64,000 nucleotides of DNA. Origin: Escherichia coli. GTDB lineage: Bacteria; Pseudomonadota; Gammaproteobacteria; Enterobacterales; Enterobacteriaceae. Shown in pieces: positions 16,262 through 55,578 of the stretch. The notes under the pieces are model-generated. The model saw nothing but the letters and a program-made list of their open reading frames with translations. It searched no databases and had not been told where the DNA came from. Made by a program: the position numbers and the translations under genes. Where the stretch lies: NCBI RefSeq assembly GCF_044324785.1, contig NZ_CP172127.1, one strand, 5' to 3'. The stretch's first letter is position 1; the number at the start of each line of letters is the position of its first letter.

Positions 16262-16593
16262 ATATCGATCTGAGTCGTTTTTTCAACAGGATTTGGAAGG
16301 GATGCATTCAAAGACAAACTCTGCTCTTTCTCCTGCGCCTTTTCTGCCTGCTGTCTTTGCAACTGCGCCAGTTGTGTTTCCAGTAGGGTGATTTGCTGCT
16401 GAATCAATTCGGCCTGTTTTTGCTTGTCTTCAGCACTGCCGCTAGTGTCTGCAATCTCTTTAATTTGTTGAGTGAGTTTGATGATTTGCTGACTTATCCG
16501 CGCAATTTGTGAAGCAACATCGCTACCTTCTGATGCCCTGTTACTACTCTGTGTTTGTATGGAAGGAATTGAAGTTGAAGAGATAGTGGCCAT
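16252..16593 (-). CDS. small Gln-rich coiled-coil protein, FlxA-like in character
   Basis: 113 aa, Ser/Thr-rich N-terminus then Q/K/E coiled-coil ([27 protein letters not shown]), C-terminal ...TQIDIYI; 10-bp convergent overlap with yfeR stop; family assignment from memory of FlxA-like proteins, not searched. Confidence 0.5.
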
Positions 16594-16680
16594 TGTTCAG
16601 TCCTCGTCACTGTACGAGGTAATATCGGCAGAAGAACAAGGAACTTGAGAAGAAAAATCAATCTTACAAACCGCATATAG

Positions 16681-16708
16681 CAAAAAAGCGCCTTTAGGGC
16701 GCTTTTTT
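16681..16708 (-). terminator. rho-independent terminator ending the Val-Val-Val-Lys tRNA operon
   Basis: agcgcc-ttta-ggcgct hairpin followed (minus strand) by T-run, immediately 3' of tRNA-Lys. Confidence 0.75.
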
Positions 16709-16712
16709 ACAT

Positions 16713-36322: not shown

Positions 36323-38020
36323 TCAAAGCAATAACGTAGCCTGTGAGGCGACTGGGGTGCGTTGGTTAGGAATGTAAAACGCAATTTCCGTTCCTGGTTC
36401 CAGGCGGCGGATATGCAGCCCCTCGCCATACAATAACTTCACGCGATGATGGACATTCAGCAGGCCAATTTTATTGCCCGGCATTTCGTTCGCTTCGACC
36501 CGCTCAATGACTTTTGGATCGATGCCGTGCCCGGTATCTCGCACCGCAATGCGTACCCGATTACCGCACTCTGCAACGCTGATGGTGACAACGCCTTTAC
36601 CTTTGCAAGGCTGAATACCGTGGACAATGGCATTCTCCACCAACGGCTGGATCAGCAGGCTGGGAATGCAGCAATTCACCTCTTCATCAATATCATAGAT
36701 AACCGTCAGCTTGTCGCCAAAGCGGGCCTGCTCAATGGCAATATAGTCTTTAATTTGATACAGCTCTTTTTTGATATCGATTTGCTCATCATCTTTTAAT
36801 TCAATGTTATAGCGCAGATAACGCGACAGATTAAAGATCAGCTGGCGAGCGGTATCTGGATTCAGACGGATTGACGATGAAATAGCGTTCAGAGCGTTAA
36901 ACAGAAAATGGGGATTAATTTTGCTTTGCAGAGCGCGAAGCTCTGCCTTATTTGCCATTTCACGTAACTGCTCGGCACGCGAAACCTCCAGTTGCGTGGA
37001 GATGATTTGCGACAGACCGACCGCCATTTCCTGTAATGACGAGGTGATCTGATGCGCGTGGCAGTAGTAAATTTTCAGCGTTCCGGTCACAACGCCTTTC
37101 TCCCACAATGGGATCACCAGCATGGAATGAATCTCTGGTGTGCGGTGGGCTTCATCATTGTTTTTAATGATGATTTTTCCGTAATTCATCGCCTGTCGGG
37201 TAGTCGGACTAATGAAGTCATCGCCATTCTGATAGTTGTGTTCGCCCACGCCGACATAGGCCAGCACATGATCGGTATTAGTAATCGCCACCGCATCGGC
37301 GTGAATATCATCGCGGATAATTTCGCAGACCTTGCGTAATGACTCGCTATTGACATGGCGAAACAGCGGCAGCGTTTTGTTGGCAATATCCAGCGCCAGC
37401 TTGGCCTGCCGCGCGGCGCTGGCCTCTTTTTCGCCCTCAACGCTTTGCACCAGCAGCACAATAAAGCCGATACAGACGCTACCGAGGATCATTGGAATCC
37501 CGATTTTAGAGACGATATCGATCCCCAACGCGGTAGTTGGTGCCCAGACAATCACCAGAATCATGGTCAACGTTTCACACAACATGCCGCCGAGAATACC
37601 GACGCGCCAGCGCTGTGCTTTAGGGATTTTCAGGTTGATCCAGCCCGATATACAACCCGCCAGAATGCTGGTGATAAAGCAGGGGATCGCCGTCACGCCG
37701 CCGATATCAATTAAATAACGGTGAATACCTGCGATCACGCCGGTAATAATGCCTACCCACGGGCCAAACAGTATCCCGCCTGACATCACCGCGATAATAC
37801 GTACGTTCACCAGCGAGCCTTCTACGGGAACGCCGGACCAGGTGCTGAACAGGGCGAACAGCGAGAAAATGGCGGTAACGGCGAGCAGCTCTTTCGGTGA
37901 GTGTGCCGACTTGTGCAACAGTTCGCGAAACAGGCGGATACGGATGAGAAAGAACAGGCAGATAAGCATTAACGCTGCCCGATCGAAGACCGCCAGCAGC
38001 ATGTTGAATATTTCGTGCAC
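36323..38020 (-). CDS. ypdA: LytS/5TM-Lyt-type sensor histidine kinase
   Basis: 565 aa; N-terminal multi-TM sensor, GAF-like region, His-kinase core. Confidence 0.9.
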
Positions 38021-38396
38021 GGGTGACTCTGAATAAGGATTAAACCTCTATGATAGGTAACCTGAAGGCTGATGACCAGCAGGCCGTTTTTGAGGAAAAA
38101 CCACAATTTTAAAAGGGGATTGAAAGATAAATGGTGTATTAGCAATGCATCTCTTGATAATGCATATCTGGTTAGTAAATTTATTGAATTTATAATGTTA
38201 ATAAATTGAGTGGTAATTTTCTTGTTCGCGTAGATAAATTTCCTGTTTTTAAAGTGGAGTTCCTCATTTAAAGCCATTGATAAAAATGTTCTAAAACGCT
38301 GGACAGACAGAAATTAATCAGGCTATTTTCAAAACAGCCACCATCGTGGCAGCGTCGCTCGGACGGTCCGGGCGCTAACGTTAATCTGAGGAAATT

Positions 38397-39635
38397 ATGG
38401 CTGACACTCGCCCTGAACGTCGCTTTACGCGCATTGATCGTCTCCCGCCCTACGTTTTTAATATTACCGCTGAACTGAAAATGGCTGCGCGTCGGCGCGG
38501 CGAAGATATTATCGATTTCAGTATGGGTAACCCGGACGGTGCGACTCCGCCGCACATCGTCGAAAAATTATGTACGGTGGCCCAGCGCCCGGACACGCAT
38601 GGTTACTCTACTTCACGCGGCATTCCGCGGTTACGTCGCGCCATTTCCCGCTGGTATCAGGATCGCTACGACGTTGAAATCGACCCGGAATCAGAAGCCA
38701 TCGTCACCATTGGTTCGAAAGAGGGCCTGGCGCATCTGATGCTGGCGACGCTGGATCATGGCGACACCGTACTGGTGCCTAATCCAAGCTACCCGATTCA
38801 TATTTACGGCGCGGTGATTGCCGGGGCGCAGGTACGCTCAGTGCCGCTGGTGGAAGGTGTCGATTTCTTCAACGAACTGGAACGCGCCATTCGTGAAAGT
38901 TATCCGAAACCGAAGATGATGATCCTCGGCTTCCCGTCGAATCCAACCGCGCAATGCGTGGAACTGGAATTCTTTGAGAAGGTTGTGGCGCTGGCGAAAC
39001 GCTACGATGTGCTGGTGGTCCATGACCTGGCCTATGCCGATATCGTCTACGATGGCTGGAAAGCGCCGTCAATCATGCAGGTGCCGGGTGCACGCGATGT
39101 GGCGGTCGAGTTCTTTACGCTGTCGAAAAGCTACAACATGGCGGGCTGGCGTATCGGCTTTATGGTTGGCAACAAAACGCTGGTTAGTGCGCTGGCACGT
39201 ATTAAAAGCTATCACGATTACGGCACCTTTACGCCGTTGCAGGTGGCGGCGATTGCGGCACTGGAGGGCGATCAACAGTGCGTGCGCGACATTGCCGAAC
39301 AGTACAAACGCCGCCGCGATGTGCTGGTGAAAGGGCTGCATGAAGCGGGCTGGATGGTCGAAATGCCGAAGGCTTCGATGTATGTCTGGGCGAAAATCCC
39401 GGAACCGTATGCTGCCATGGGCTCGCTGGAATTTGCCAAGAAGCTGCTGAACGAAGCGAAGGTCTGTGTCTCTCCGGGGATTGGCTTTGGCGACTACGGC
39501 GACACGCATGTTCGCTTTGCACTGATTGAAAACCGCGACCGTATTCGTCAGGCGATTCGTGGGATTAAAGCGATGTTCCGTGCCGATGGTTTACTACCCG
39601 CCAGCAGCAAACATATTCACGAAAATGCGGAATAA
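38397..39635 (+). CDS. alaC: glutamate-pyruvate aminotransferase (class I aminotransferase)
   Basis: 412 aa PLP aminotransferase ([12 protein letters not shown] lysine motif); synonym yfdZ. Confidence 0.92.
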
Positions 39636-39649
39636 ACACCGACCTCAAA

Positions 39650-39683
39650 AATGCAAACAGGAGCCTGATGGCTCCTGTTTTTC
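39650..39683. terminator. bidirectional rho-independent terminator after alaC
   Basis: aacaggagcc-tgat-ggctcctgtttttc. Confidence 0.8.
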
Positions 39684-39699
39684 ATTGCACAGTTTGCTT

Positions 39700-39771
39700 T
39701 TAGATCATCAGGGCAAAAGTACCGGCCCAAACGATGACCATAAAAGAAATGCCCATAAAGAAATATTTCAC
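39700..39771 (-). CDS. ypdK: very small hydrophobic protein (23 aa)
   Basis: Minus-strand GTG-initiated frame giving MKYFFMGISFMVIVWAGTFALMI (GTG read as initiator Met), preceded by ggagag SD; recognised from memory as YpdK; too short for the ORF track. Confidence 0.45.
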   Translation of the reverse strand: MKYFFMGISFMVIVWAGTFALMI

Positions 39772-40126
39772 TTTACATCTCTCCGCGTAATTACTGTTAC
39801 GCCTGAATGACTTCATTACACCTGATACAGTGAGTTGACACCGGGCAAAACGACCTTAAAAGTCCTGTATTTTACCGTGGGCATCACCCCAGAATTCTGA
39901 GCTAAACTGCTCCAGACGGCGCTAATGTACGCCTAAAACTGAAACGAGACAAGAGGCATTTTCTTATTTACTTTTAGTAACTTACAGGTGTCTCATATCG
40001 GCGACAGTTTAATTTCTGGCGGTAATAATTAGAGATTCAGCGAAGGAAAAAACCTTAAGAAAAAAGCCATAAAAACCATGAGGTTATTATGGCTGATTTG
40101 AGGAGGGAAAGAGTAAGAGCAGTTTG

Positions 40127-41047
40127 TTAAATGTATAACGACGATTCACCCACCGGGCGCGTTTTAAAGCGACGGTGGATCCAGAGGTACTGCTCCGGCG
40201 CGCGCATGATCTCTTTCTCGATAATCTTGTTCATATAGGCAGCGGCTTGATTTTCATCTGCCGGGTAGCCTTCCATCTCTGGGGTGATGTACAAACGATA
40301 TCCGCTGTAATCCGCTTTTCTTACCATCGTTACGGTTAACATGGCTGCGCCAGAGAGACGTGAAAGGACATACGTACCATTGGTTGTGGCGACATTTTCC
40401 ACCGCAAAGAACGGCGCGAAGGAGCTGCCTTTACGACCATAATCCTGATCGGGAGCAAACCATACCGCTTCACCTTTCTTCAGTGCACCGACAATGCCGC
40501 GTAGATTATTTCTGCCGATCATCGCTTTGTTAGAGCGCATGCGCCCACGGGTCTGCACCCATTCCATCAGCTGATTATTATGTGGACGATAGGTAGCCAT
40601 CATTGGTTGACAAAGTCCCATCACGCGGCCGCCCAGTTCCAGCGACATAAAATGGACGCCGACAACCATTACGCCGCGATTTTGCATTTGTGCGCGTTTA
40701 AGGTTATCCAGTCCTTCAACATCAAACCATTTGCGTACGCGACTGTCGGGCCAGAACCACGCCATGCCGGTTTCTACCAGCGCCATGCCGAGTGAACGAA
40801 AGTTTTCGGCAATCATCTTCTCGCGTTCTTCCGCAGAATGCTGCGGGAAGCAAAGTTCCAGGTTTTTACGGGCGATAGATTCACGCCGTTTCAGGAATGG
40901 TCGCGCCATTGCGCCAATACGCGTGCCGAGAAAGCAGAGAACAGGATAAGGAAGCTGTACCCAAAGCCAGAGTACACCAAGCCCAAACCATGTGAGCCAG
41001 TAGCGAGGATGTAGAAACTCGCGGGAAAATTTGCATTGTGGAAACAT
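40127..41047 (-). CDS. lpxP: lipid A palmitoleoyltransferase (cold-induced late acyltransferase)
   Basis: 306 aa from internal ATG (MFPQCKFSREFLHPRYW...); HtrB/MsbB acyltransferase family. Confidence 0.88.
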   Translation of the reverse strand: MFPQCKFSREFLHPRYWLTWFGLGVLWLWVQLPYPVLCFLGTRIGAMARPFLKRRESIARKNLELCFPQHSAEEREKMIAENFRSLGMALVETGMAWFWPDSRVRKWFDVEGLDNLKRAQMQNRGVMVVGVHFMSLELGGRVMGLCQPMMATYRPHNNQLMEWVQTRGRMRSNKAMIGRNNLRGIVGALKKGEAVWFAPDQDYGRKGSSFAPFFAVENVATTNGTYVLSRLSGAAMLTVTMVRKADYSGYRLYITPEMEGYPADENQAAAYMNKIIEKEIMRAPEQYLWIHRRFKTRPVGESSLYI

Positions 41048-41399
41048 AGTTACCTTCTGTAGATACGAATTGTTGTATCGCAGAAGATTCCATGTCGACA
41101 GCGGTACACTCAATTGGTTGGGCCATCATGTACGACAATGGTTCCTGTAAAGAGTGTAAAGACTAGTCAGGACATAACCACGAGGAGCATGAATGCGGTG
41201 GCTCTACTTTATCACTGGCTGACTGCTTTCAGCTACTGATTATTAATCGTGCAAAGTAAATATTTTTCCGCACGCAATAGCGTTGCATTTAACGTGCTGT
41301 TTTCATTGATGCTTAGCAAAAATTGCCAGAGGTTAAGGATTGTCTTACTATTAAAGTGACTGAAGTTACAGGTTTTTTAGCGCGGCAGGAGGTTGAGCT

Positions 41400-41642
41400 A
41401 TGATTTATTTATGGATGTTTCTCGCCCTGTGTATTGTCTGCGTAAGCGGCTACATTGGTCAGGTCCTGAACGTGGTATCGGCGGTCTCTTCTTTCTTCGG
41501 CATGGTGATCCTCGCTGCACTCATTTATTACTTCACCATGTGGTTAACTGGCGGTAATGAACTGGTGACGGGGATATTTATGTTTCTTGCCCCGGCTTGT
41601 GGCTTGATGATTCGCTTTATGGTGGGGTATGGCAGGCGCTAG
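41400..41642 (+). CDS. yfdY: small inner-membrane protein (DUF2545 type)
   Basis: 80 aa, two predicted TM helices. Confidence 0.75.
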   Translation: MIYLWMFLALCIVCVSGYIGQVLNVVSAVSSFFGMVILAALIYYFTMWLTGGNELVTGIFMFLAPACGLMIRFMVGYGRR

Positions 41643-41718
41643 TGGGTCAGGATGGTTCATTTGGGCAGGTGTTCACATCAGCATCAGGCATGATTGTTCA
41701 CCTGCCATGTGACAGACG

Positions 41719-41994
41719 CTATCGCACAGGATGGATAAGATAATTCGCCTTTGTCGGAAAAGGGGGCGGAATTTCTTCTGTGAGGTTTAATGGTGGCGCA
41801 TCTTCTCTCAACTTAAACAAAATCGCCTGTGATGGCTGAAGTTTTGTAGAATGAGTTGTCGTCATCACTGACGTTTTTTCTGTCTCTTTATAGCTCGTCT
41901 CACTTCCACCACCAGAAATAGAAAATGCAAAAACATTGCATGCCATAATAGAGACCAATAAAAATAAGCTAAAAAGCATTAAGTTTACTTTCAT
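41719..41994 (-). CDS. ypdI: small lipoprotein
   Basis: 91 aa; signal peptide with lipobox (SIMAC). Confidence 0.75.
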   Translation of the reverse strand: MKVNLMLFSLFLLVSIMACNVFAFSISGGGSETSYKETEKTSVMTTTHSTKLQPSQAILFKLREDAPPLNLTEEIPPPFPTKANYLIHPVR

Positions 41995-42289
41995 AGAAAG
42001 TTATCCTGAAAATGGTTCACTGAAAACCTACGACGTTATGGCTGTATTTACATATAATTAATCAGTATTTACATCGATATAATAAATGACATCTCTTTTT
42101 GGTATATAAGAATAGTTCTCTGTGACAGGAAGCATATTCCTACAATTGTAAGACTAAAATACTTCTTGCGATAATAACTACAGCTGTAAGATAACCCTTT
42201 CAAAATGACCGTTGCTCTCTGATTTCTCATTTCATGCTCACCCAATATGATGGCGGCGTTTTCTAAAACTGTTAAAGAATGAGGTAAGT

Positions 42290-42922
42290 ATGAAACGTTT
42301 AATTATGGCTACGATGGTCACAGCAATTCTGGCATCTTCAACTGTATGGGCGGCTGATAATGCACCGGTAGCGGCACAACAGCAAACTCAGCAAGTTCAG
42401 CAAACCCAGAAAACGGCAGCAGCAGAGCGTATCTCTGAACAAGGTTTATATGCGATGCGTGACGTGCAGGTAGCGCGCCTGGCTCTGTTTCATGGCGATC
42501 CGGAAAAGGCAAAAGAACTGACCAATGAAGCTTCAGCTTTGTTGTCAGATGACAGTACCGAATGGGCAAAGTTCGCTAAGCCAGGTAAAAAGACCAATCT
42601 CAATGATGACCAATATATTGTCATTAATGCATCTGTCGGAATTTCTGAGAGTTATGTAGCGACACCCGAAAAAGAAGCCGCGATAAAAATTGCCAACGAA
42701 AAAATGGCGAAAGGGGATAAAAAGGGCGCAATGGAAGAGCTTCGCCTGGCCGGTGTTGGCGTAATGGAAAACCAATATCTGATGCCGCTTAAACAGACTC
42801 GTAATGCACTTGCTGATGCGCAGAAACTGCTTGATAAAAAGCAATACTACGAGGCAAACCTGGCGCTTAAAGGTGCTGAAGATGGAATCATCGTCGATAG
42901 CGAAGCACTGTTTGTGAACTAA
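42290..42922 (+). CDS. yfdX: periplasmic YfdX-family protein
   Basis: 210 aa, signal peptide [21 protein letters not shown]. Confidence 0.88.
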
Positions 42923-43446
42923 AGCTGACAGGCAATATATTGAGGTAAAGGATTTAACTCCCTCCAGCCGACAATTTTTTATGACCACAATACGACAGGT
43001 TGTGGTCATAAAATTATTTGGCGCTCGCGGTTCTATAAACTCGCATTTTATCTTCCTCAAAGTAACCCGCAATAATTCCGTGTCATCACAAATCATTTAT
43101 TATGTTATGCTTTATGGTACGCTTTAAAAAGCGTAATCATACCCTTACTTGTAAATCACCGGCGCTTCTTACAGTTGTAAGAATAACATCACAAATGTCG
43201 CGGCTCTCTCTGATTACCGCGAACCAATATTTATCATATTCTTCTTTTCGTCCTCACTACTTACCATGCAGAAAGGAATTGGAAGTGGCGATGAAATGAT
43301 TATCAGCACTTGATACAGGAATTTAAAAATATCGAGTGCAGCTACGACGATATTTTGCGGATTATTTATAGAGAGCGTTATGCCTTAAATAAACGCTAAA
43401 TTAACATATATTTAATTAACTAATAGGTATTGCTATGTCAACTCCA

Positions 43447-43455
43447 CTTCAAGGA
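43447..43455. repeat. target-site duplication, left copy (cttcaagga)
   Basis: 9-bp direct repeat flanking the IS; identical copy at 44513-44521. Confidence 0.9.
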
Positions 43456-43473
43456 GGCTTTGTTGAATAAATC
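43456..43473. repeat. IS903 left terminal inverted repeat
   Basis: ggctttgttgaataaatc. Confidence 0.9.
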
Positions 43474-43511
43474 AGATTTCGGGTAAGTCTCCCCCGTAGC
43501 GGGTTGTGTTT

Positions 43512-44480
43512 TCAGGCAATACGCACGCTTTCAGGCATACCTGCTTTCGTCATTTTGTTCAGCGCTCGTACCAGGGCCATAGCCTCCGCAACCTGACCAT
43601 CGTAGTCACGCAGCGTCAGTGAACCCCCGAACAGCTGTTTTACCCGGTACATCGCCGTTTCCGCTATCGAGCGACGGTTGTAATCTGTTGTCCATTTCCA
43701 CCGCGCATTACTCCCGGTCATTCGCTGATTAGCCACTGCACGGTTACGGTCTGCATATTCACCGGGCCAGTAACCCGCACCTTTTCGGGGAGGGATAAGC
43801 GCGCTGATTTTCTTACGCCGCAGTTCATCGTGACATAGCCGGGTATCGTAAGCGCCATCGGCGGCGGCTGACCTGATTTTCCGGTGGGTTTGCCGGATTA
43901 ACCCGGGGAAGGCCTCTGAGTCCGTAACGTTGTTCAGCGACAGGTCAGCGCAGATGATTTCATGTGTTTTACTGTCAACGGCGAGATGCAGCTTACGCCA
44001 GATACGGCGGCGTTCCTGGCCATGCTTTTTGACTTTCCACTCGCCTTCACCGAAGACCTTCAGCCCGGTGGAATCAATTACCAGGTGTGCGATTTCACCC
44101 CGGGTGGGCGTTTTGAAACTGACATTAACCGACTTTGCCCGCCTGCTGACACAGCTGTAATCCGGGCAGCGTAGCGGAACGTTCATCAGAGAAAAAATGG
44201 AATCAATAAAGCCCTGCGCAGCCCGCAGGGTCAGCCTGAATACGCGTTTAATGACCAGCACAGTAGTGATGGCAAGGTCAGAATAGCGCTGAGGTCTGCC
44301 TCGTGAAGAAGGTGTTGCTGACTCATACCAGGCCTGAATAGCTTCATCATCCAGCCAGAAAGTTATGGAGCCACGGTTGATGAGGGCTTTATTGTAGGTG
44401 GGCCAGTTGGTGATTTTGAACTTTTGCTTTGCCACGGAACGGTCTGCGTTGTCGGGAAGATACGTGATCTGATCCTTCAA
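43512..44480 (-). CDS. IS903-group transposase (DDE)
   Basis: 322-aa ORF filling the IS; IS5/IS903-type transposase sequence. Confidence 0.9.
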
Positions 44481-44494
44481 CTCAGCAAAAGTTC

Positions 44495-44512
44495 GATTTA
44501 TTCAACAAAGCC
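44495..44512. repeat. IS903 right terminal inverted repeat
   Basis: gatttattcaacaaagcc, reverse complement of the left IR. Confidence 0.9.
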
Positions 44513-44521
44513 CTTCAAGGA
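44513..44521. repeat. target-site duplication, right copy (cttcaagga)
   Basis: Identical to 43447-43455. Confidence 0.9.
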
Positions 44522-45804
44522 ATTAAAGTTCTCGATTTCACCGGTGTGCAATCTGGCCCATCTTGTACTCAGATGCTGGCCTGGTTTGGCGCTGACGTCA
44601 TTAAAATTGAACGTCCCGGCGTTGGTGACGTAACGCGTCACCAGCTGCGAGATATTCCTGATATCGATGCGCTTTACTTCACCATGCTTAACAGTAACAA
44701 ACGTTCTATTGAATTAAATACCAAAACAGCGGAAGGCAAAGAGGTAATGGAAAAGCTGATCCGCGAAGCTGATATCTTAGTCGAGAACTTTCATCCAGGG
44801 GCCATTGATCACATGGGCTTCACCTGGGAGCATATTCAAGAAATCAATCCACGTCTGATTTTTGGTTCGATCAAAGGGTTTGATGAGTGTTCGCCTTATG
44901 TGAATGTAAAAGCCTATGAAAACGTTGCTCAGGCAGCGGGTGGTGCGGCATCCACTACAGGTTTTTGGGACGGCCCGCCGCTGGTAAGCGCTGCAGCGTT
45001 GGGTGACAGCAACACCGGAATGCATTTGCTGATCGGTTTACTTGCTGCTTTGCTGCATCGCGAAAAAACGGGGCGTGGGCAACGAGTTACCATGTCAATG
45101 CAGGATGCCGTGTTGAACCTTTGCCGCGTGAAATTACGCGACCAGCAGCGTCTCGATAAGTTGGGGTATCTGGAAGAATACCCGCAGTATCCGAATGGCA
45201 CATTTGGTGATGCAGTTCCCCGCGGTGGTAATGCGGGTGGTGGCGGTCAGCCTGGCTGGATCCTGAAATGTAAAGGCTGGGAAACCGATCCTAATGCCTA
45301 TATTTATTTCACTATTCAGGAGCAAAACTGGGAAAACACCTGTAAAGCTATCGGCAAACCAGAATGGATTACCGATCCGGCATATAGTACAGCTCATGCC
45401 CGACAGCCACATATTTTCGATATTTTTGCTGAAATCGAAAAATACACTGTCACTATTGATAAACATGAAGCGGTGGCCTATTTGACTCAGTTTGATATTC
45501 CTTGTGCACCGGTTTTAAGTATGAAAGAAATTTCACTTGATCCCTCTTTGCGCCAAAGTGGCAGTGTTGTCGAAGTGGAACAACCGTTGCGTGGAAAATA
45601 TCTGACAGTTGGTTGTCCAATGAAATTCTCTGCCTTTACGCCGGATATTAAAGCTGCGCCGCTATTAGGTGAACATACCGCTGCTGTATTGCAGGAGTTG
45701 GGTTATAGCGACGATGAAATTGCTGCAATGAAGCAAAACCACGCCATCTGATATTAACGGGGGCTTCTGGCTCCCAATTTATAAAAATTTCGAGGTTATT
45801 AATC

Positions 45805-47499
45805 ATGTCAGATCAACTTCAAATGACAGATGGTATGCATATCATCGTTGAAGCATTAAAACAGAATAATATTGACACTATTTATGGTGTTGTAGGTATT
45901 CCTGTGACGGATATGGCACGCCATGCCCAGGCGGAAGGCATTCGTTATATTGGTTTTCGTCATGAGCAGTCGGCAGGCTATGCCGCTGCGGCAAGCGGTT
46001 TTCTTACCCAAAAACCAGGGATCTGCCTGACAGTGTCTGCGCCAGGATTCCTCAATGGTTTGACCGCATTGGCCAACGCAACGGTAAATGGTTTTCCGAT
46101 GATCATGATTAGCGGCTCCAGCGACCGCGCGATCGTCGACCTACAGCAAGGTGATTATGAAGAGCTGGACCAAATGAATGCGGCAAAACCGTATGCCAAA
46201 GCAGCATTCCGCGTTAATCAGCCGCAGGATCTTGGCATTGCATTGGCACGCGCTATCCGGGTCTCAGTATCGGGTCGCCCTGGCGGAGTTTATCTTGATT
46301 TGCCTGCAAATGTCCTGGCCGCGACGATGGAAAAAGACGAAGCGTTAACCACGATTGTAAAAGTTGAAAATCCGTCGCCAGCATTATTGCCATGCCCGAA
46401 GTCAGTCACTAGCGCAATTTCGCTTTTAGCAAAAGCTGAACGGCCATTAATTATCCTTGGCAAAGGCGCGGCGTATTCACAAGCTGATGAACAGCTTCGT
46501 GAATTTATTGAAAGTGCTCAGATCCCATTCCTGCCAATGTCTATGGCGAAAGGGATCCTCGAAGATACGCATCCACTTTCTGCGGCAGCTGCGCGTTCGT
46601 TTGCCCTGGCAAATGCTGACGTTGTCATGCTTGTTGGTGCACGACTGAATTGGTTACTGGCGCACGGTAAAAAAGGATGGGCGGCAGATACACAGTTTAT
46701 TCAACTGGAAATTGAACCGCAGGAAATTGACAGCAACCGCCCCATTGCTGTGCCAGTCGTTGGTGATATTGCATCCAGTATGCAAGGTATACTGGCAGAA
46801 TTGAAACAAAACACATTTACGACTCCACTGGTATGGCGCGATATTTTAAATATCCACAAGCAGCAAAATGCACAAAAAATGCATGAAAAATTAAGTACAG
46901 ATACTCAACCATTAAATTACTTTAATGCATTAAGTGCTGTGCGCGACGTATTGCGCGAGAACCAGGATATTTATTTAGTTAATGAAGGGGCAAATACCCT
47001 GGATAATGCACGAAATATTATTGATATGTATAAACCACGTCGTCGTCTGGATTGTGGCACCTGGGGTGTCATGGGCATCGGTATGGGCTATGCCATCGGT
47101 GCTAGCGTGACTTCTGGTTCTCCGGTTGTCGCCATTGAAGGTGATAGTGCTTTTGGTTTCAGTGGGATGGAGATTGAAACGATTTGTCGATATAACCTGC
47201 CGGTGACGATCGTTATTTTTAATAATGGCGGCATTTACAGAGGAGACGGTGTTGATCTCAGTGGCGCTGGTGCACCATCACCAACAGATCTATTGCACCA
47301 TGCAAGGTATGACAAATTAATGGATGCGTTTCGTGGCGTTGGCTATAACGTCACTACGACAGATGAACTTCGTCATGCTTTAACCACCGGTATTCAGTCG
47401 CGCAAACCGACCATTATTAATGTGGTCATCGACCCTGCAGCAGGAACTGAAAGTGGCCATATTACCAAACTTAACCCAAAACAAGTCGCTGGTAATTAA
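45805..47499 (+). CDS. oxc: oxalyl-CoA decarboxylase (ThDP-dependent)
   Basis: 564 aa thiamine-diphosphate enzyme family. Confidence 0.93.
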
Positions 47500-47567
47500 A
47501 TACTGACATCGTCTCCTCTTGCCAACTCATTATCGATGGTGAGGGGACCCTTATCGGAAATACTATT

Positions 47568-48512
47568 ATGCTAACATTTTTTATTGGCGATTTATTGCCT
47601 ATTATCGTAATCATGCTGTTGGGTTATTTTAGCGGCAGACGAGAAACTTTTTCAGAAGATCAAGCCCGGGCATTTAATAAACTGGTATTAAACTACGCTC
47701 TTCCTGCGGCTCTATTTGTATCTATTACCCGGGCAAACAGGGAAATGATTTTTGCGGACACTCGTCTGACCCTTGTATCACTTGTGGTTATTGTCGGATG
47801 TTTCTTTTTCTCCTGGTTCGGTTGCTACAAATTTTTTAAACGTACTCATGCAGAAGCAGCAGTATGTGCATTAATTGCAGGTTCACCTACCATTGGATTC
47901 CTGGGATTTGCAGTTCTCGATCCTATTTATGGTGATTCCGTATCAACAGGTTTAGTTGTAGCAATTATTTCTATTATTGTTAACGCAATTACTATTCCTA
48001 TTGGTCTGTATTTGCTGAATCCTTCCTCAGGAGCGGATGGTAAGAAGAATAGTAATCTGAGCGCATTAATTTCTGCGGCAAAGGAGCCAGTAGTATGGGC
48101 ACCTGTTCTGGCAACGATCCTGGTGTTGGTTGGGGTAAAAATTCCGTCAGCATGGGACCCAACCTTTAATCTGATTGCGAAGGCTAACTCAGGGGTAGCG
48201 GTATTCGCTGCGGGGTTGACTCTGGCTGCACATAAATTCGAGTTCAGTGCCGAAATTGCTTATAACACCTTCCTGAAGCTGATTCTGATGCCACTGGCGC
48301 TGCTTCTCGTTGGTATGGCATGTCATTTGAACAGCGAACATTTGCAGATGATGGTACTGGCAGGCGCTTTACCGCCGGCATTCTCCGGAATCATTATTGC
48401 CAGCCGGTTTAATGTCTACACCCGCACTGGTACAGCATCATTGGCTGTGAGCGTACTGGGCTTTGTCGTCACGGCTCCCTTGTGGATTTATGTCAGTCGA
48501 CTGGTTTCATAA
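47568..48512 (+). CDS. yfdV: AEC-family (auxin efflux carrier-like) transporter
   Basis: 314 aa polytopic membrane protein. Confidence 0.88.
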
Positions 48513-48540
48513 TTAATCATGTTATTGATTTTACATAAAT

Positions 48541-48571
48541 GCCGAAGTGTCTTTTCACCTTCGGCTTTTTT
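48541..48571 (+). terminator. rho-independent terminator after yfdV
   Basis: gccgaag-tgtcttttcac-cttcggc followed by tttttt; lies inside the ORF-track N-terminal extension of yfdE, supporting the downstream start. Confidence 0.7.
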
Positions 48572-48585
48572 CAAGGCATAAGCAA

Positions 48586-49731
48586 ATGACAAATAATGAA
48601 TGCAAAGGGCCGTTTGAAGGCTTATTAGTTATCGATATGACACATGTCCTTAATGGACCTTTCGGAACTCAACTTCTTTGTAATATGGGCGCAAGGGTAA
48701 TTAAAGTTGAGCCGCCGGGTCATGGTGATGATACCCGCACATTTGGTCCCTATGTGGATGGGCAGTCACTCTATTACAGTTTTATTAATCATGGCAAAGA
48801 GAGTGTGGTTCTTGATTTAAAGAATGCTCACGATAAAAGTATATTTATAAATATGCTTAAACAAGCTGATGTATTAGCTGAGAATTTTCGCCCAGGTACA
48901 ATGGAAAAACTGGGGTTTTCATGGGAAACGCTACAAGAAATCAACCCGCGTCTCATATATGCTTCATCGTCAGGTTTTGGGCATACCGGCCCGCTAAAAG
49001 ATGCTCCAGCCTACGATACCATCATTCAGGCAATGAGCGGGATAATGATGGAAACAGGGTACCCTGATGCTCCGCCAGTGCGCGTGGGTACCTCTCTTGC
49101 GGATTTATGTGGCGGTGTCTATTTATTCAGCGGAATAGTGAGTGCACTTTATGGCCGCGAAAAGAGCCAGAGAGGGGCGCATGTCGATATAGCGATGTTT
49201 GATGCCACGCTGAGTTTTCTGGAGCATGGTCTGATGGCATATATTGCGACAGGGAAGTCACCACAACGCCTGGGAAATCGCCATCCCTACATGGCACCTT
49301 TTGATGTTTTTGATACTCAGGATAAGCCGATTACGATTTGTTGTGGTAATGACAAGCTTTTTTCTGCGTTATGCCAGGCACTGGAGCTTACGGAACTGGT
49401 TAATGATCCCCGATTTAGCAGCAATATTTTACGCGTACAAAACCAGGCTATTCTTAAACAATATATTGAGCGAACGTTAAAAACACAGGCAGCTGAAGTT
49501 TGGTTAGCCAAAATACATGAAGTTGGTGTGCCCGTCGCGCCGTTATTAAGTGTGGCTGAGGCCATTAATTTGCCACAAACTCAGGCGAGAAATATGTTGA
49601 TTGAAGCCGGGGGAATAATGATGCCAGGTAATCCGATAAAAATCAGCGGCTGCGCGGACCCGCATGTTATGCCGGGAGCGGCAACGCTCGACCAGCATGG
49701 GGAACAAATTCGCCAGGAATTCTCATCGTAA
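48586..49731 (+). CDS. yfdE: family III CoA-transferase (acetyl-CoA:oxalate CoA-transferase)
   Basis: 381 aa from ATG 48586 (MTNNECKGPFEGLLVIDMTHVLNGPFG...); paralogous to Frc. Confidence 0.88.
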   Translation: MTNNECKGPFEGLLVIDMTHVLNGPFGTQLLCNMGARVIKVEPPGHGDDTRTFGPYVDGQSLYYSFINHGKESVVLDLKNAHDKSIFINMLKQADVLAENFRPGTMEKLGFSWETLQEINPRLIYASSSGFGHTGPLKDAPAYDTIIQAMSGIMMETGYPDAPPVRVGTSLADLCGGVYLFSGIVSALYGREKSQRGAHVDIAMFDATLSFLEHGLMAYIATGKSPQRLGNRHPYMAPFDVFDTQDKPITICCGNDKLFSALCQALELTELVNDPRFSSNILRVQNQAILKQYIERTLKTQAAEVWLAKIHEVGVPVAPLLSVAEAINLPQTQARNMLIEAGGIMMPGNPIKISGCADPHVMPGAATLDQHGEQIRQEFSS

Positions 49732-49786
49732 ATGTTAGATATGCTGGTAAATAGCTCCCACATTTGAACATTGTGGGAGCCGCTAT

Positions 49787-52700
49787 TTAGTCATTTTGTT
49801 GACAGAAAACAGCAATCTCCTGGTCTAACTCTGCAATGTGTTCTTTAACAGAGTTCAGCAACTTAAGAATTTCAGGCTTGCTGTCATCTGAAACGGGCGT
49901 TATTTCTAACTGATGGCTAATATTAATCAACTTTTGCAAATTCAGGATGTTAGCCGCACCGTGGATGCGATGAATACACTGATGGAAAGTTCTGTTGTCG
50001 CCAGCTTCTAGTGCATGAAACGCAGCGGGTAGATCTTTATGCGTTTCATGCTGGAAAGTCATGAGAATCTCCTGCATCAGTTGTAGATCGTTCGCCGTAT
50101 TATTTTTCAGGGCCTCGATATCAAGGTGGCGATACTGAGGTGCAATATGCGCAACCTGGTGTAACTGACTTAAATGTGTTTTCAGTACATCCAGGGTCAA
50201 CGGTTTGAACAAACATAAGTTCATGCCGCAATTTAACCCTTTTTCACGTTCGTTAGCCTGTGCGTTGGCTGTAAGCCCCCAGATGGGTAAGGAAGAATTT
50301 TGCTCACGGAGTTTGCGAGTCAACTCAAAACCATCCATATTCGGCATATTAACGTCAGTAATAAGCAGATCATAATGTTGCATACTGACTTTGTGTAGCG
50401 CTTGCACACCATCAGTTGCTTCATCAACATCATATCCTAATAGGTTTAGCTGGCGTTTGAGTAATAGCCTGTTGGTCGGATGATCATCCGCTATTAATAT
50501 GCTCAACTTTTCAGGGAGTGTCATAGGTTGTTCTGCTTTTGCCTCGACAGTCGCCACTTGTTGGGTAATTTCTACCGGGATTGTGATCGTAAATGTCGTT
50601 CCTATGCCTGGATGACTTTCTAATGATAAATCGCCCTGCATGTTTTTAATTAATTCTTTGCAGATCATTAAGCCTAAACCAGAACCTGTTTGCTGACGAC
50701 CTGCACTTGTTTGGCTATAGCGTTTAAACAGTTGTTGTTGTTCTTCCTGCGATAATCCACTTCCAGAATCCATAATCGTCATTTTGATAACAGCGTGGTT
50801 GTCATCAATGTGACCCAGGGAGGTCGTAATTTTTACTGCCCCCTCGGTAGTAAATTTAAGAGCATTGCTCAGTAAATTAGATAAGACCTGCTTAAACGCC
50901 TGAGGGTCGATCTTAACCTGGTAATGTTCTGGAAACGTACTGCTGCAACTTAATGCGATGGATTTGCTTGCAGCAATCGCACCGAAAGAGTGACAAGTGT
51001 TCTGGACTAAAGTAGGGATGTCGACCCATTGTGGTTGAAGTTGATAGTTACCCGACTCAATTTTGTCGACATCAAGGATTTCACCAATTAAGCCGAGGAG
51101 TGATTGTCCGGTGGCGTAGGCAAGTGAAATCGCCTCCACCCGTTGCTCCTTGCTAAGACCAGAACCCGACAGAAGTTCGAGGAAGCCCATAATGGAGCTT
51201 ATTGGTGTTCTTATTTCGTGACTCATTGTTGCCAGAAACTGGCTTTTTGCGACAGTTGCATTGATCGCTTTATTTCTCTCTACTTCGAGTGCATGAATTA
51301 AATCACGCGTCTCGGTAATATCTTGCCAACCACAAATATAAACAGCATGATCGCTGGCTGGCAGATTGCATAATGTATGCCAGTGATTAATGCATCTTTT
51401 CTCGATGCCATTATCAATTTCAAATACCTGTGTGTATATTGTTCGATTTTCTTTCGTTTCTGCTGTGACTTCATGCGCATTAGAAAAAACATCTTTAAAG
51501 GGTGAGTCACTGTTTTCTAATGGTAACATTGCATTTTTGTAGTAATCCGCAGTGAAATAATGTTCAAAAGCACTATTATGACTAATGACATTACCTTGCC
51601 AGTTTACAACATAAGTTGGATTCGGTAAGGAATCCGAGAGTGCTTTTCGGAATGATATTTGGTTTTCTAAATCACCCTGAATGACTTTACGACGACGAAC
51701 TGAGCGTAACAGGTAGAATCCCCATAAAAGGCTACTGCCAACTAATAAAACGGATAATGTCGTGACAATATAAAATTGCTCGCTATAGAGGTCCCATGTG
51801 TCAATGGTCACATTGGGCATTTTAATCCATTTTTCCGTCAGGCGCAGAACTTCGCTTGGGGGAATTGCATTCAGTGCTTTATTAATAATATCCTTAAGTT
51901 CCGGTTCTCCGCGAGGAAAAGCGAACGAAAGCGATGCATTCTGAACGCCGGGAATAAGAAAATGATAAAGTTCATTAGGATAGTAATGGTCGATCATGTA
52001 ACGCGAATTTAGCTGTGTCGCGACCAGAGCATCAAGTTCACCTTCCTTGACCTTGTGAAATGCAGCACTAGCGTTATCGACTTTTATCCACTCTACCTCC
52101 GGATACATCTCTTTTAATTGCGAATGAAGCTCATAATAATATGGAATGGCAACTTTCATTCCTTTTTTTAATGTTTGTTCACTGTCAGGCGCTTTTTGCA
52201 TGACAAAAACGTAAGGCGTTGTTATGAAGGCTTCAGCAAATGAAACATTATTTTCTCGATCTTCACTATAAATAGCGGCGGGCAATATATCCCATCCACC
52301 GGGGTTAAGCTGTGTCCCCGCATGAATATTGTGTGAAACGGTGATCGGAGAAAAATTTAAACCTGTTTGCAAGGTAATAATATTAAGAATATCACCCATC
52401 ACGCCCCGAACTGAGCCAGTTTCATCTGTCATAGAATAGGGTGGCGAGTAAGGATTTTCCAGCACCTTTAAATCGGGATGCTGCTTAATCCACTGTTTTT
52501 CATGTTCAGTGAGTTCTAATGGTTTGTTCAGAAAGGCCAGGTTTCCTGTATCAAGCCAATTTTGTGATACTTCATAGCGAACTTCATTTGTTAAAGCATC
52601 AACAAACCGATTGAGTACTTCATTAAGAACGACTGAATCTTTTCTGGTTAAGAAAAAGTTATATTGACGCGGCGAGTTATAATATTTCACTACATTTAAG

Positions 52701-53380
52701 GAGTGAGTGAAATAGCGGGAAATCATACTGCTGGTAATAATGTTACTACCAATAAAGTAATCATTCTGTCCGGCTGAGACGGATGCTAATGCCTGATATA
52801 AATTTGTAAAAGAGATAATTGTTGCTTTTGGAAATGATTGATGAATTACCTCGTCTGGAGGGTAATTTGCTACCCGAGCAATATTTACTGGTTTTGATGA
52901 GGTAAGCGGTCTCATTGAATCGTGAAGGGTGGTGACCAGCGCCGGAAAGGTAATTATCAGCGGTTTGGTTGCAGCAATGTCATCATTAAGAGGCGGCGAA
53001 GCAACTAAATGTGATAACACTATATCGACTTCACCTTCTTCCAGCGCGTCCATTGCTTTTTGATGATCGGCGTATTCCCGGAGTGTTAATTTGATATTTA
53101 ACGCTCTTTTTAAAAGATTTAAATAATCAGCATTAATACCACGAACCCGTTGCTGCGAATCGGTATGCAACAACGTAGCCGTTTGGGACTTGTGTACTGC
53201 AATCACAAGATTTTTTTTGCTCGCTAACCAACGTAATTCCTTGTTGCTCAGACGTAGTGGATCAAGTGTGACACGGTTGTTACTACTGATGCCACGATAT
53301 TCGATGTAATCTTCGTCTGCGAAACTTATGGTCGACCAAAGACCACAACAGAGAAGAAAAATATAGGGTAAAAACTTCAT
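49787..53380 (-). CDS. evgS: hybrid sensor histidine kinase EvgS
   Basis: 1197 aa; tandem periplasmic solute-binding domains, TM, HisKA/HATPase, receiver, HPt. Confidence 0.95.
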   Translation of the reverse strand: MKFLPYIFLLCCGLWSTISFADEDYIEYRGISSNNRVTLDPLRLSNKELRWLASKKNLVIAVHKSQTATLLHTDSQQRVRGINADYLNLLKRALNIKLTLREYADHQKAMDALEEGEVDIVLSHLVASPPLNDDIAATKPLIITFPALVTTLHDSMRPLTSSKPVNIARVANYPPDEVIHQSFPKATIISFTNLYQALASVSAGQNDYFIGSNIITSSMISRYFTHSLNVVKYYNSPRQYNFFLTRKDSVVLNEVLNRFVDALTNEVRYEVSQNWLDTGNLAFLNKPLELTEHEKQWIKQHPDLKVLENPYSPPYSMTDETGSVRGVMGDILNIITLQTGLNFSPITVSHNIHAGTQLNPGGWDILPAAIYSEDRENNVSFAEAFITTPYVFVMQKAPDSEQTLKKGMKVAIPYYYELHSQLKEMYPEVEWIKVDNASAAFHKVKEGELDALVATQLNSRYMIDHYYPNELYHFLIPGVQNASLSFAFPRGEPELKDIINKALNAIPPSEVLRLTEKWIKMPNVTIDTWDLYSEQFYIVTTLSVLLVGSSLLWGFYLLRSVRRRKVIQGDLENQISFRKALSDSLPNPTYVVNWQGNVISHNSAFEHYFTADYYKNAMLPLENSDSPFKDVFSNAHEVTAETKENRTIYTQVFEIDNGIEKRCINHWHTLCNLPASDHAVYICGWQDITETRDLIHALEVERNKAINATVAKSQFLATMSHEIRTPISSIMGFLELLSGSGLSKEQRVEAISLAYATGQSLLGLIGEILDVDKIESGNYQLQPQWVDIPTLVQNTCHSFGAIAASKSIALSCSSTFPEHYQVKIDPQAFKQVLSNLLSNALKFTTEGAVKITTSLGHIDDNHAVIKMTIMDSGSGLSQEEQQQLFKRYSQTSAGRQQTGSGLGLMICKELIKNMQGDLSLESHPGIGTTFTITIPVEITQQVATVEAKAEQPMTLPEKLSILIADDHPTNRLLLKRQLNLLGYDVDEATDGVQALHKVSMQHYDLLITDVNMPNMDGFELTRKLREQNSSLPIWGLTANAQANEREKGLNCGMNLCLFKPLTLDVLKTHLSQLHQVAHIAPQYRHLDIEALKNNTANDLQLMQEILMTFQHETHKDLPAAFHALEAGDNRTFHQCIHRIHGAANILNLQKLINISHQLEITPVSDDSKPEILKLLNSVKEHIAELDQEIAVFCQQND

Positions 53381-53384
53381 GTGG

Positions 53385-53999
53385 TTAGCCGATTTTGTTA
53401 CGTTGTGCGAATGTGTAAAGATCCATCAGTGATTTACATTCTAATTTTTCCATCAGGCGACTTTTATAAGTGCTGACAGTTTTGTTGCTGATGAACATTT
53501 TTTCAGCAATGTCATTATTATCCTTGCCATCAAGAATATATCGCATGACACTAATTTCTTGTTTCGATAAGGAGTCGAGTTTTTGCTGGTCGGACGTTAA
53601 ACTTCCAACAAACCGGTTGAGAGAGAAGGGGAAATAGCAGTAGCCATTTTTTGCAGCTTCAATAGCCGCAATGATATTGTTCATGCCTTCTTTTTTACTC
53701 ACGAATCCATTAGCGCCAGCATCAGCACAATGTTTCCCGTAAAAATGGTCATTTTTAGCGGAGACGATAATAATAATTCCGCTATATTGACGCTTCCTTA
53801 GCGTTTCTAACACCTGGATACCGTTAACTCCGGGGATATCGACATCAATGATGACGATATCAGGCTTAAGTGTTTCCACCCGCTGAACGGCGCTTCCGCC
53901 TTCAGTCAACTCTGCTAAGATTTCAATATCGTTTTTGATCAATAAATTACGAATAGCTGCGATAGCAAGAGGATGGTCATCAATAATTATTGCGTTCAT
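53385..53999 (-). CDS. evgA: response regulator EvgA (NarL/FixJ family)
   Basis: 204 aa; receiver domain plus LuxR-type HTH. Confidence 0.95.
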   Translation of the reverse strand: MNAIIIDDHPLAIAAIRNLLIKNDIEILAELTEGGSAVQRVETLKPDIVIIDVDIPGVNGIQVLETLRKRQYSGIIIIVSAKNDHFYGKHCADAGANGFVSKKEGMNNIIAAIEAAKNGYCYFPFSLNRFVGSLTSDQQKLDSLSKQEISVMRYILDGKDNNDIAEKMFISNKTVSTYKSRLMEKLECKSLMDLYTFAQRNKIG

Positions 54000-54223
54000 A
54001 GATTATTCCCTTTGCAATGAAGCATCTCCCTTCTCCCTGTAGTAATACAGACATAAGGCATCATCTCATTTTCTCAATAAAAATAAGAAAATTTGAGCTT
54101 CCTTTAAGATAATTCGACAAGTATACCATATAAATAGTCGGCATAAATGAAATGTCAACAATAAAATCAGGGATTGTACCGATGATTTATAGTTTCACAT
54201 TAGCACTATAAGTCTTCTCACTA

Positions 54224-54241
54224 ATCCTACAGGCGTAAGAA
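54224..54241. promoter_or_regulatory. candidate EvgA box (18-bp imperfect inverted repeat) in evgA-emrK divergent intergenic region
   Basis: aTCCTACAggCGTAAGAA, resembling the reported EvgA half-site TTCPyTACA in inverted orientation. Confidence 0.45.
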
Positions 54242-54414
54242 TTGTATTGCAAAAGCCACGGTTTAGTCCTCTGTTGTTTCTTTTGCACCTCATTTAAATT
54301 AGGCCTCCAACGTTCCTGGGATAATGTGCAACACATGCACTGTGTTTGATATGAAGAATGAATACTCTTTTCATTCAATTCATAAATTTCATCTATGCGA
54401 AATGAGAGATAATA

Positions 54415-55578
54415 GTGGAACAGATTGATTCAAATAAAAAACATTCTAACAGAAGAAAATACTTTTCTTTATTGGCGGTAGTTTTATTTATTGCGTTTTC
54501 AGGTGCCTATGCCTATTGGTCAATGGAATTAGAAGACATGATTAGTACAGATGACGCCTATGTCACGGGGAATGCAGATCCAATTTCTGCACAAGTTTCA
54601 GGCAGCGTCACTGTCGTTAATCATAAAGATACGAACTACGTTCGACAGGGTGACATTTTAGTCTCACTGGATAAGACTGATGCCACTATCGCACTCAATA
54701 AAGCTAAAAATAATCTGGCCAATATTGTTCGGCAAACGAATAAACTGTACTTACAGGATAAACAATACAGTGCCGAAGTCGCTTCAGCACGTATTCAGTA
54801 TCAACAATCTTTAGAAGATTATAACCGTCGTGTACCTTTAGCGAAGCAGGGGGTTATTTCAAAAGAAACGCTGGAGCATACCAAAGATACGTTAATAAGT
54901 AGCAAAGCGGCATTGAATGCTGCTATTCAGGCTTATAAAGCGAATAAAGCTTTAGTAATGAACACACCATTAAACCGTCAGCCACAAGTCGTTGAAGCGG
55001 CGGATGCAACCAAAGAAGCCTGGTTAGCGCTTAAACGTACGGATATTAAGAGTCCTGTTACCGGCTATATTGCCCAGAGAAGCGTTCAGGTCGGCGAAAC
55101 AGTGAGTCCCGGACAATCGTTAATGGCTGTCGTACCGGCACGTCAAATGTGGGTTAATGCCAACTTTAAAGAAACACAACTTACGGATGTGCGGATTGGT
55201 CAATCGGTCAATATTATCAGCGATCTTTATGGTGAAAATGTTGTGTTTCATGGTCGGGTGACAGGGATCAATATGGGAACCGGCAATGCGTTCTCCTTAT
55301 TACCTGCACAAAATGCGACAGGGAATTGGATCAAAATCGTTCAGCGTGTACCGGTTGAGGTTTCTCTTGATCCAAAAGAACTCATGGAACATCCCTTGCG
55401 TATTGGTTTATCGATGACTGCAACTATTGATACCAGGAACGAAGACATTGCCGAGATGCCCGATCTGGCTTCAACCGTGACGTCCATGCCTGCTTATACC
55501 AGTAAGGCTTTAGTTATCGATACCAGTCCGATAGAAAAAGAAATTAGCAACATTATTTCGCATAATGGACAACTTTAA
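54415..55578 (+). CDS. emrK: multidrug efflux membrane fusion protein (EmrA paralog)
   Basis: 387 aa HlyD-family periplasmic adaptor; stop overlaps emrY start. Confidence 0.92.
   Translation: MEQIDSNKKHSNRRKYFSLLAVVLFIAFSGAYAYWSMELEDMISTDDAYVTGNADPISAQVSGSVTVVNHKDTNYVRQGDILVSLDKTDATIALNKAKNNLANIVRQTNKLYLQDKQYSAEVASARIQYQQSLEDYNRRVPLAKQGVISKETLEHTKDTLISSKAALNAAIQAYKANKALVMNTPLNRQPQVVEAADATKEAWLALKRTDIKSPVTGYIAQRSVQVGETVSPGQSLMAVVPARQMWVNANFKETQLTDVRIGQSVNIISDLYGENVVFHGRVTGINMGTGNAFSLLPAQNATGNWIKIVQRVPVEVSLDPKELMEHPLRIGLSMTATIDTRNEDIAEMPDLASTVTSMPAYTSKALVIDTSPIEKEISNIISHNGQL

Follow-up and report, generated by a model that had tools for sequence, protein, structure and literature searches.

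Two probable kinds of AT-rich promoter spacer and a conserved predicted alaC leader in the pyrS-alaC to evgA-emrK region of Escherichia coli

Four intergenic tracts between pyrS (ypdA) and emrK on the Escherichia coli chromosome are strongly AT-rich, and the locus raises the question whether they share a single meaning. A preliminary description had taken all four for promoters silenced by the nucleoid proteins H-NS and StpA. It had also taken them to mark a horizontally influenced block, lpxP-yfdX-frc. Analysis of the whole 64,000-nucleotide stretch in which they lie (hereafter the window) indicates that the four tracts are probably intergenic spacers that carry promoters and fall into two distinct kinds. 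The acid-resistance layout of evgAS, emrKY and yfdX-frc, an old block of low GC whose promoters are AT-rich, bound by H-NS and activated by EvgA, is already known, and the earlier reading is right in spirit for the spacers linked to evgAS, wrong for lpxP and unsupported for the pyrS-alaC spacer. What is gained is a correction, in that the compositional block begins at ypdI rather than at lpxP. Potential novelty attaches solely to the predicted leader of alaC, which is far more conserved than the AlaC protein and for which an Rfam match is absent.

The window is a part of the E. coli chromosome that is colinear with 2.478-2.503 Mb of K-12 MG1655 in reverse orientation, at 97.2-97.8% identity, and the gene names and boundaries used here are those of the K-12 annotation transferred onto it (Table 1). 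The K-12 counterparts of islands 1 to 4 are, in this order, 2498296-2498670, 2494403-2494697, 2493255-2493766 and 2483340-2483754 of NC_000913.3. Some strain-level differences from K-12 were also observed. Where K-12 has the genes xapR-xapB-xapA-yfeN, between yfeR and lysV, the window has only a 451-bp spacer at 16262-16712, and IS186C, which lies beside nupC in K-12, is missing from the window. At the argW tRNA-Arg(CCT) site (61160-63291) the CPS-53 (KpLE1) prophage of K-12 is missing, and the ORFs directly after argW in this interval are presumably yfdC- and mlaA-like.

Table 1. Features of the window; gene rows follow the transferred K-12 annotation, and promoters, boxes and leader elements are predictions
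Feature	Positions	Strand	Details
ypdC, pyrR (ypdB), pyrS (ypdA)	pyrS 36323-38020	pyrS -	
Island 1, divergent pyrS (ypdA)-alaC spacer	38021-38396		376 bp; GC 0.372
Predicted pyrS promoter	38050-38078	-	-35 TGGTCA (38078-38073), 17-nt spacer, -10 TATCAT (38055-38050); hexamers conserved in 17 genera
Box A	38111-38121	+	AAAAGGGGATT; invariant in 17 genera; candidate SgrR site
AT-rich centre of island 1	38125-38260		GC 0.27; two 9/10 H-NS motif matches, 38178-38187 (-) and 38231-38240 (+)
Box B	38260-38269	+	TTCCTCATTT (consensus TTCCnCTTTT); reverse complement of box A; candidate SgrR site
Predicted alaC promoter	38300-38329	+	-35 TGGACA (consensus TCGACA), 18-nt spacer, -10 TATTTT
alaC leader, GC-rich, structured	38336-38396	+	59% GC; most conserved sequence of the region
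Leader hairpin 1	38337-38350	+	GCCAC-CAUC-GUGGC; structure conserved, sequence variable
Leader hairpin 2	38352-38381	+	G CGUCGCUCGGA CGG UCCGGGCG CUA ACGU; 12 bp, 3-nt bulge, two G.U pairs
alaC Shine-Dalgarno GAGGA and ATG start (38397)	38388-38399	+	
alaC, ypdK	alaC 38397-39635	alaC +	
lpxP, yfdY, ypdI	lpxP 40127-41047; ypdI 41719-41994	lpxP -; ypdI -	
Low-GC block ypdI-yfdX-frc-oxc-yfdV-yfdE-evgSA-emrKY	41719-57116		GC 0.425 without the IS, against 0.52 in the left flank
GC3, genes left of the block			pyrS 0.60, alaC 0.62, lpxP 0.54, yfdY 0.63
GC3, block, first half			ypdI 0.36, yfdX 0.41, frc 0.43, oxc 0.40, yfdV 0.40, yfdE 0.41
GC3, block, second half			evgS 0.38, evgA 0.41, emrK 0.37, emrY 0.40
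GC3, genes right of the block			dsdA 0.475, dsdX 0.54
Island 2, divergent ypdI-yfdX spacer	41995-42289		GC 0.332; EvgA boxes 42137-42154 (1 mismatch) and 42175-42192 (3 mismatches)
yfdX, frc, oxc, yfdV, yfdE	yfdX 42290-42922; frc start 43435	yfdX +	
Island 3, yfdX-frc spacer	42923-43434	+	GC 0.363; perfect EvgA box 43166-43183
Terminator-like hairpin downstream of yfdX, in island 3	42977-43013		
IS903B, after frc codon 7	43456-44512	-	1057 bp; 9-bp target duplication CTTCAAGGA at 43447-43455 and 44513-44521
evgS and evgA	49787-53999	-	
evgL leader ORF, in island 4	53996-54025		
Island 4, divergent evgA-emrK spacer	54000-54414		GC 0.340; EvgA box 54224-54241 (2 mismatches)
emrK and emrY, then dsdA	emrK/emrY 54415-57116	+	

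Base composition of the four spacers

The four intervals coincide exactly with gene boundaries, and their strong AT-richness was borne out, the GC contents being 0.33-0.37 against 0.491 for the whole window. In a sliding 300-bp GC profile of the window (mean 0.491, sd 0.061, 5th percentile 0.383, 1st percentile 0.333) all four rank in the lowest 1-5% of the 300-bp windows, and their 100-bp minima are 0.23-0.27.

Among all spacers of the window that bear a promoter and measure 100 bp or more, 18 in number, the four have a mean GC of 0.352 against 0.414 for the other 14 (Mann-Whitney p=0.006). The four do not constitute a separate compositional class, AT-rich promoter spacers being the norm in E. 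coli. Their composition could accordingly be regarded as that of any E. coli promoter spacer, with its UP elements, -10 regions and easy melting, and as devoid of nucleoid-protein meaning. Unrelated spacers of the window that are equally AT-rich (dsdX-dsdC 0.346, nupC-ypeD/mntH 0.358, yfeH-yfeR 0.337) agree with such an explanation, as do the tables of Shimada 2014 (PMC3946193), in each of which only 24-36% of the RpoD-bound spacers bear an H-NS mark. However, the GC of the four is significantly below that of the other 14, and experiments have shown H-NS to bind islands 3 and 4; we consider the explanation improbable for the four taken together.

The AT-richest stretch of the window, absent from the preliminary description, is 63184-63978, with a 300-bp minimum GC of 0.283 and a sole ORF of at least 60 amino acids, which is 63 amino acids long.

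The low-GC block from ypdI to emrY and its EvgA boxes

A compositionally foreign block that is limited to E. coli in the sample exists from ypdI to emrY, and lpxP is excluded from it. The block is about 14 kb long and its edges are defined by steps in GC3 at the yfdY|ypdI and emrY|dsdA junctions (Table 1); lpxP, with a GC of 0.514 and a GC3 of 0.54, falls outside. The phyletic distribution was surveyed in AlaC-anchored loci (L005-L084) of 80 species, each represented by a single genome with 10 kb of flanking sequence, the contig of E. albertii being incomplete. Among these loci, the genes from ypdI to yfdE adjoin alaC-lpxP-yfdY in E. coli only. The order glk-pyrR-pyrS followed by the divergent alaC is common across the Enterobacteriaceae and the Erwiniaceae, and lpxP-yfdY is found downstream of alaC in Escherichia, Citrobacter and Salmonella, with lpxP alone also in Enterobacter and Lelliottia. 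When the stretch 37000-45000, which includes the left part of the block and reaches frc, was used as a query, it was identified in about 5396 of the 5426 complete E. coli genomes, and the left part of the block is therefore core in E. coli.

As to the marks of horizontal acquisition, the ypdI-emrY block shows deviant GC and GC3 and a restricted distribution, and lacks an integrase or tRNA, none being annotated in or beside it; its sole mobile element is the strain-specific IS903B. The earlier claim of a horizontally influenced lpxP-yfdX-frc block thus holds in so far as a block of low GC and GC3 was seen only in E. coli among the 80 species. It does not hold for lpxP, a gene of ordinary GC and GC3 that keeps its synteny with alaC in Citrobacter, Salmonella and Enterobacter; the limits are also to be moved, the left edge being really yfdY|ypdI and the right end extending to emrY.

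The same loci (L005-L084) differ on the other side of pyrR. The genes fryBC-ypdFE-fryA-ypdC separate glk from pyrR in Escherichia, Pseudocitrobacter and some Citrobacter alone, glk being directly beside pyrR in most other genera. In Salmonella arizonae the fry/ypd cluster is present and pyrSR have no match.

The window was searched for the 18-bp inverted repeat TTCYTACANNTGTARGAA, which we take to be the EvgA-box consensus. With up to three mismatches to this consensus, four matches were obtained in the 64 kb against 0.55 expected by chance, and all of them lie in islands 2-4. The same four boxes are found in K-12, and island 1 has no match at up to three mismatches. EvgA-bound inverted repeats have been described upstream of yfdX and yfdWUVE (PMC3720670), binding of EvgA to the emrKY promoter is stated in PMC9496106 with reference to Kato 2000, and yfdX, frc and emrKY are activated by EvgA (PMC3720670, PMC9496106). 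The description of these genes as acid-stress-inducible agrees with this literature and with the presence of all four boxes in their spacers.

Genomic-SELEX 'HNS' marks are reported in the frc-yfdX and emrK-evgA spacers and none in the yfdY-lpxP spacer (Shimada 2014, PMC3946193). A preferential gel shift of the evgA promoter by H-NS has also been reported, and EvgA is among the regulators with expression modulated by H-NS (Krin 2010, PMC2984483). The proposed binding of H-NS is supported, for islands 3 and 4, by the published SELEX and gel-shift results. According to Fitzgerald 2023 (PMC10294691), the K-12 position 2484480, which lies in evgS and corresponds to about 53274 in the window, is flagged as H-NS-bound in the ChIP-seq data of Kahramanoglou. 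The evgS coding sequence itself holds AT-rich patches at 51292-51778 and 52461-52905 (GC 0.33-0.34), and the patches together with the bound position indicate that H-NS probably covers coding DNA of evgS besides the spacers. The SELEX, gel-shift and other articles consulted yielded no published H-NS or StpA binding at islands 1 and 2; the supplements of Fitzgerald 2023 hold no coordinates near the islands, and H-NS is not mentioned in Pasqua 2019.

Islands 2-4 would thus represent the control regions of EvgA acid-response genes within the low-GC block. Following the established model, H-NS would coat their AT-rich DNA and keep the genes quiet, and phosphorylated EvgA, acting at its box, would activate transcription at mildly acidic pH. 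In this scheme the boxes and the composition were computed here, H-NS at islands 3 and 4 and the dependence on EvgA are taken from the literature, and for island 2 we infer the presence of H-NS. The three spacers are orthologous to those of the K-12 EvgA regulon, whose promoters are under H-NS silencing (emrKY, yfdX, frc/yfdWUVE, ydeP, safA-ydeO, evgAS), and resemble their K-12 counterparts in sequence (about 97-98% identity), in the four EvgA boxes, in gene order and in the low-GC context.

The strain studied differs from the K-12 regulon in one respect, namely that the frc promoter and its EvgA box are split by IS903B from most of frc-oxc-yfdV-yfdE, the open frame of frc being broken after codon 7. 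Island 3, described earlier as the region upstream of frc, is still so by position, as the yfdX-frc spacer, but no longer by function. Since the insertion cuts frc off from the EvgA promoter, this strain probably has a defect in the oxalate-dependent pathway of acid tolerance. The junction of IS903B with frc was not found in one piece among the complete E. coli genomes.

The pyrS-alaC spacer and its candidate SgrR boxes

The spacer between pyrS and alaC is present in 5422 of the 5426 E. coli genomes, and in about 37 species of the Enterobacteriaceae it has a length of 381-392 bp and a GC of 0.36-0.50, about 10 points under that of the flanking genes. Its composition is uneven, the centre having 27% GC and the last 61 bp 59% GC. 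Conserved blocks were read from an alignment of 17 genera, and they include a predicted promoter for each of the two genes and two short boxes, A and B (Table 1). The centre is unconserved in sequence, with a GC ranging between genera from 0.28 (E. coli) to 0.51, and its length is 138-143 bp in 15 of the 17 genera. The conserved -35 and -10 hexamers of alaC place its predicted start near 38335-38337, about 1 nt before leader hairpin 1.

Boxes A and B are inverted copies of a AAAAGGGGA-type motif. A distance of about 149 bp lies between them, and they face each of the two divergent promoters, with the alaC -35 lying about 30 bp downstream of box B. In K-12 the same motif as box A is found in the sgrS promoter, in the form TAAAAGGGGAAC, and the sgrS start follows about 65 nt further downstream. 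As alaC is an SgrR-activated gene (PMC4021124) and the motif is shared with the sgrS promoter, we infer that boxes A and B are SgrR sites. Their placement suggests SgrR sites that serve both divergent promoters, possibly with DNA looping. Among the SgrR-activated promoters (sgrS, setA, alaC/yfdZ), the motif of sgrS thus recurs here twice, directly in box A and in inverted form in box B; the difference from the known SgrR-activated promoters is that the candidate boxes are widely separated and directed toward both promoters. The promoters, the starts and the boxes of this spacer are all predicted from conservation.

The sequence TCGATAAATT, which we take to be the high-affinity motif of H-NS, is a weak predictor; it has two 9/10 matches in island 1 and one just inside evgA, and islands 2 and 3 have none. 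With two near-consensus motifs in its AT-rich core, island 1 is a plausible place for H-NS binding. These motifs, the strong AT-richness common to all four tracts and the published binding of H-NS at two of them are what can be said for the explanation that every one of the tracts is a promoter bound and silenced by H-NS/StpA and marks a horizontally influenced lpxP-yfdX-frc block. That explanation nevertheless appears unlikely. For lpxP, alaC and pyrS, both GC and GC3 are normal and synteny is kept between genera; island 1, a core spacer, is itself conserved and has an AT-richness that depends on the lineage, and reports of H-NS or StpA were not found in the literature on islands 1 and 2.

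The pyrS-alaC spacer belongs to a different and ancient class from islands 2-4. The horizontal influence attributed to it earlier is contradicted by its conservation across the Enterobacterales, by the lack of an EvgA box and by the SgrR-activated alaC promoter that it holds. In the explanation preferred here, island 1 would be an ancient, vertically inherited and length-constrained divergent spacer carrying the pyrS and alaC promoters and the two inverted boxes, separated by an unconserved linker whose pronounced AT-richness in Escherichia is incidental. At its alaC end would stand the GC-rich, structured and near-invariant 5' leader of that gene. The alaC gene is activated by SgrR and is not an EvgA gene; a role of H-NS at island 1 is possible.

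The conserved, predicted leader of alaC

Conservation of the leader was examined in 77 distinct sequences, 76 of them from AlaC-anchored genome loci and one from the window itself. The core, CGTCGCTCGGACGGTCCGGGCGCTNACGT, is essentially invariant across the 77 leaders, and the 29-nt bulged hairpin CGUCGCUCGGACGGUCCGGGCGCUNACGU is almost invariant across the Enterobacterales. When folded independently, all 77 leaders were found to have a hairpin upstream of the core, of 5-8 bp and ending 0-3 nt before it. This hairpin 1 occurs in 29 stem types and has a mean fold energy of -9.1 kcal/mol against -3.3 kcal/mol for shuffled sequences. In an alignment fitted to the model, compensatory changes are observed in 5 of its 5 pairs, with 97.8% of the cells paired and none of 500 shuffles matching this. 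Seven of the 12 pairs of hairpin 2 never vary, and its sole double change, in Kluyvera, replaces G-C by A-U with the pairing kept; as helices 2 and 3 are nearly invariant, covariation is uninformative there. In single-sequence folding the 5' end of the leader pairs with the region of the start codon. Inspection of the aligned leaders revealed no conserved alternative pairing that would hide the ribosome-binding site, the pairing of the 5' end being lost with other hairpin-1 arms.

A covariance model of the leader finds one match per locus in 1.57 Mb, with 62-97 bits in the sense and at most 16 bits in the antisense orientation, and in E. coli genomes the core is single-copy with no annotation beneath it. 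In Rfam 15, the leader (38336-38394) has no match at the gathering score or at E<=10, the only overlap being a below-threshold chance match to a snoRNA from 38395, and tRNAs alone reach the gathering score window-wide. A permissive Rfam scan of 38000-38450 gave chance-level matches only, and no paper on an alaC leader RNA was found in the literature.

These features suggest, tentatively, that 38336-38396 may code for a cis-regulatory RNA element, not described before, in the mRNA for alaC, the glutamate-pyruvate aminotransferase, a reading that we hold with somewhat less than even confidence. The near-invariance of hairpin 2 would imply that its sequence is specifically recognised, whether the partner is a universal factor, a metabolite or, in autoregulation, AlaC itself. 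If it is a real regulatory RNA, the leader offers a handle on the control of alanine/pyruvate transamination and could bear on the fact that alaC adjoins the pyruvate-sensing PyrSR system across the Enterobacterales.

Alternatively, the stretch 38352-38381 could work at the level of double-stranded DNA instead of as an RNA hairpin, a conserved transcription factor using it as an operator downstream of the start of alaC. The stretch forms an imperfect palindrome, and hairpin 2 varies so little that covariation provides no proof of RNA pairing. However, the two arms differ by the 3-nt bulge and by two G.U positions that pair only in the sense RNA, and the double change in Kluyvera preserves the pairing. 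Free covariation in the neighbouring hairpin 1 argues for a transcribed and structured region; 29 consecutive invariant bases would be unusual for a factor binding site, and alaC is the only gene always linked to the element. An operator seems quite unlikely on these grounds.

Several other identities were considered for the leader and rejected. A longer AlaC protein is excluded by an in-frame TAA at 38382-38384. For a conserved upstream peptide, this strain has a 10-codon GTG ORF running across the core, yet its start lies within the covarying arm of hairpin 1; this, together with the invariance of all three codon positions, indicates that the conservation is not driven by a peptide. An operator of the AlaRS type was discarded as the region upstream of alaS has no similarity to the leader core, and mimicry of rRNA or tRNA was dismissed since shuffled cores, at their best, match an rrn operon just as well as the real core does. 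A sigma-54 or NtrC-like reading of hairpin 1 was rejected by eye, the arm sequences differing between genera. The guanidine-II (mini-ykkC) class needs two tandem hairpins with ACGR loops, whereas only hairpin 2 has ACGG, with AUGG in several species; the loops of hairpin 1 are variable across the leaders.

As a regulatory RNA, the predicted element may be compared with small structured 5' leaders, both the translational operators bound by proteins, as in thrS or ribosomal-protein genes, and small riboswitches such as guanidine-II/mini-ykkC, since it would likewise be a short, gene-specific element of the 5'-UTR on the sense strand. The apex of the near-invariant stem-loop reads ACGG, as in the ACGR loops of mini-ykkC. 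Unlike mini-ykkC, the alaC leader has one ACGR-like loop only, and this loop tolerates C>U.

The linkage of the core to alaC was also assessed in metagenomes, where an exact-pattern scan identified 120 stretches. An AlaC homologue starts 5-23 nt downstream of the core in all of the 118 matches that could be assessed. A protein search for distant AlaC homologues gave only matches of at least 89% identity, and hence no variant hairpin-2 cores. The core also occurs on contigs of 63-71% GC that encode an AlaC 70-83% identical to the E. coli protein. The same leader is carried by one Pseudomonas resinovorans genome (contig L082, 62% GC) together with a 91%-identical AlaC, which suggests joint horizontal transfer of the gene and its leader. 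The AlaC protein is itself unusually conserved, the E. coli sequence being about 89-92% identical in amino acids to those of Pantoea, Erwinia and Serratia.
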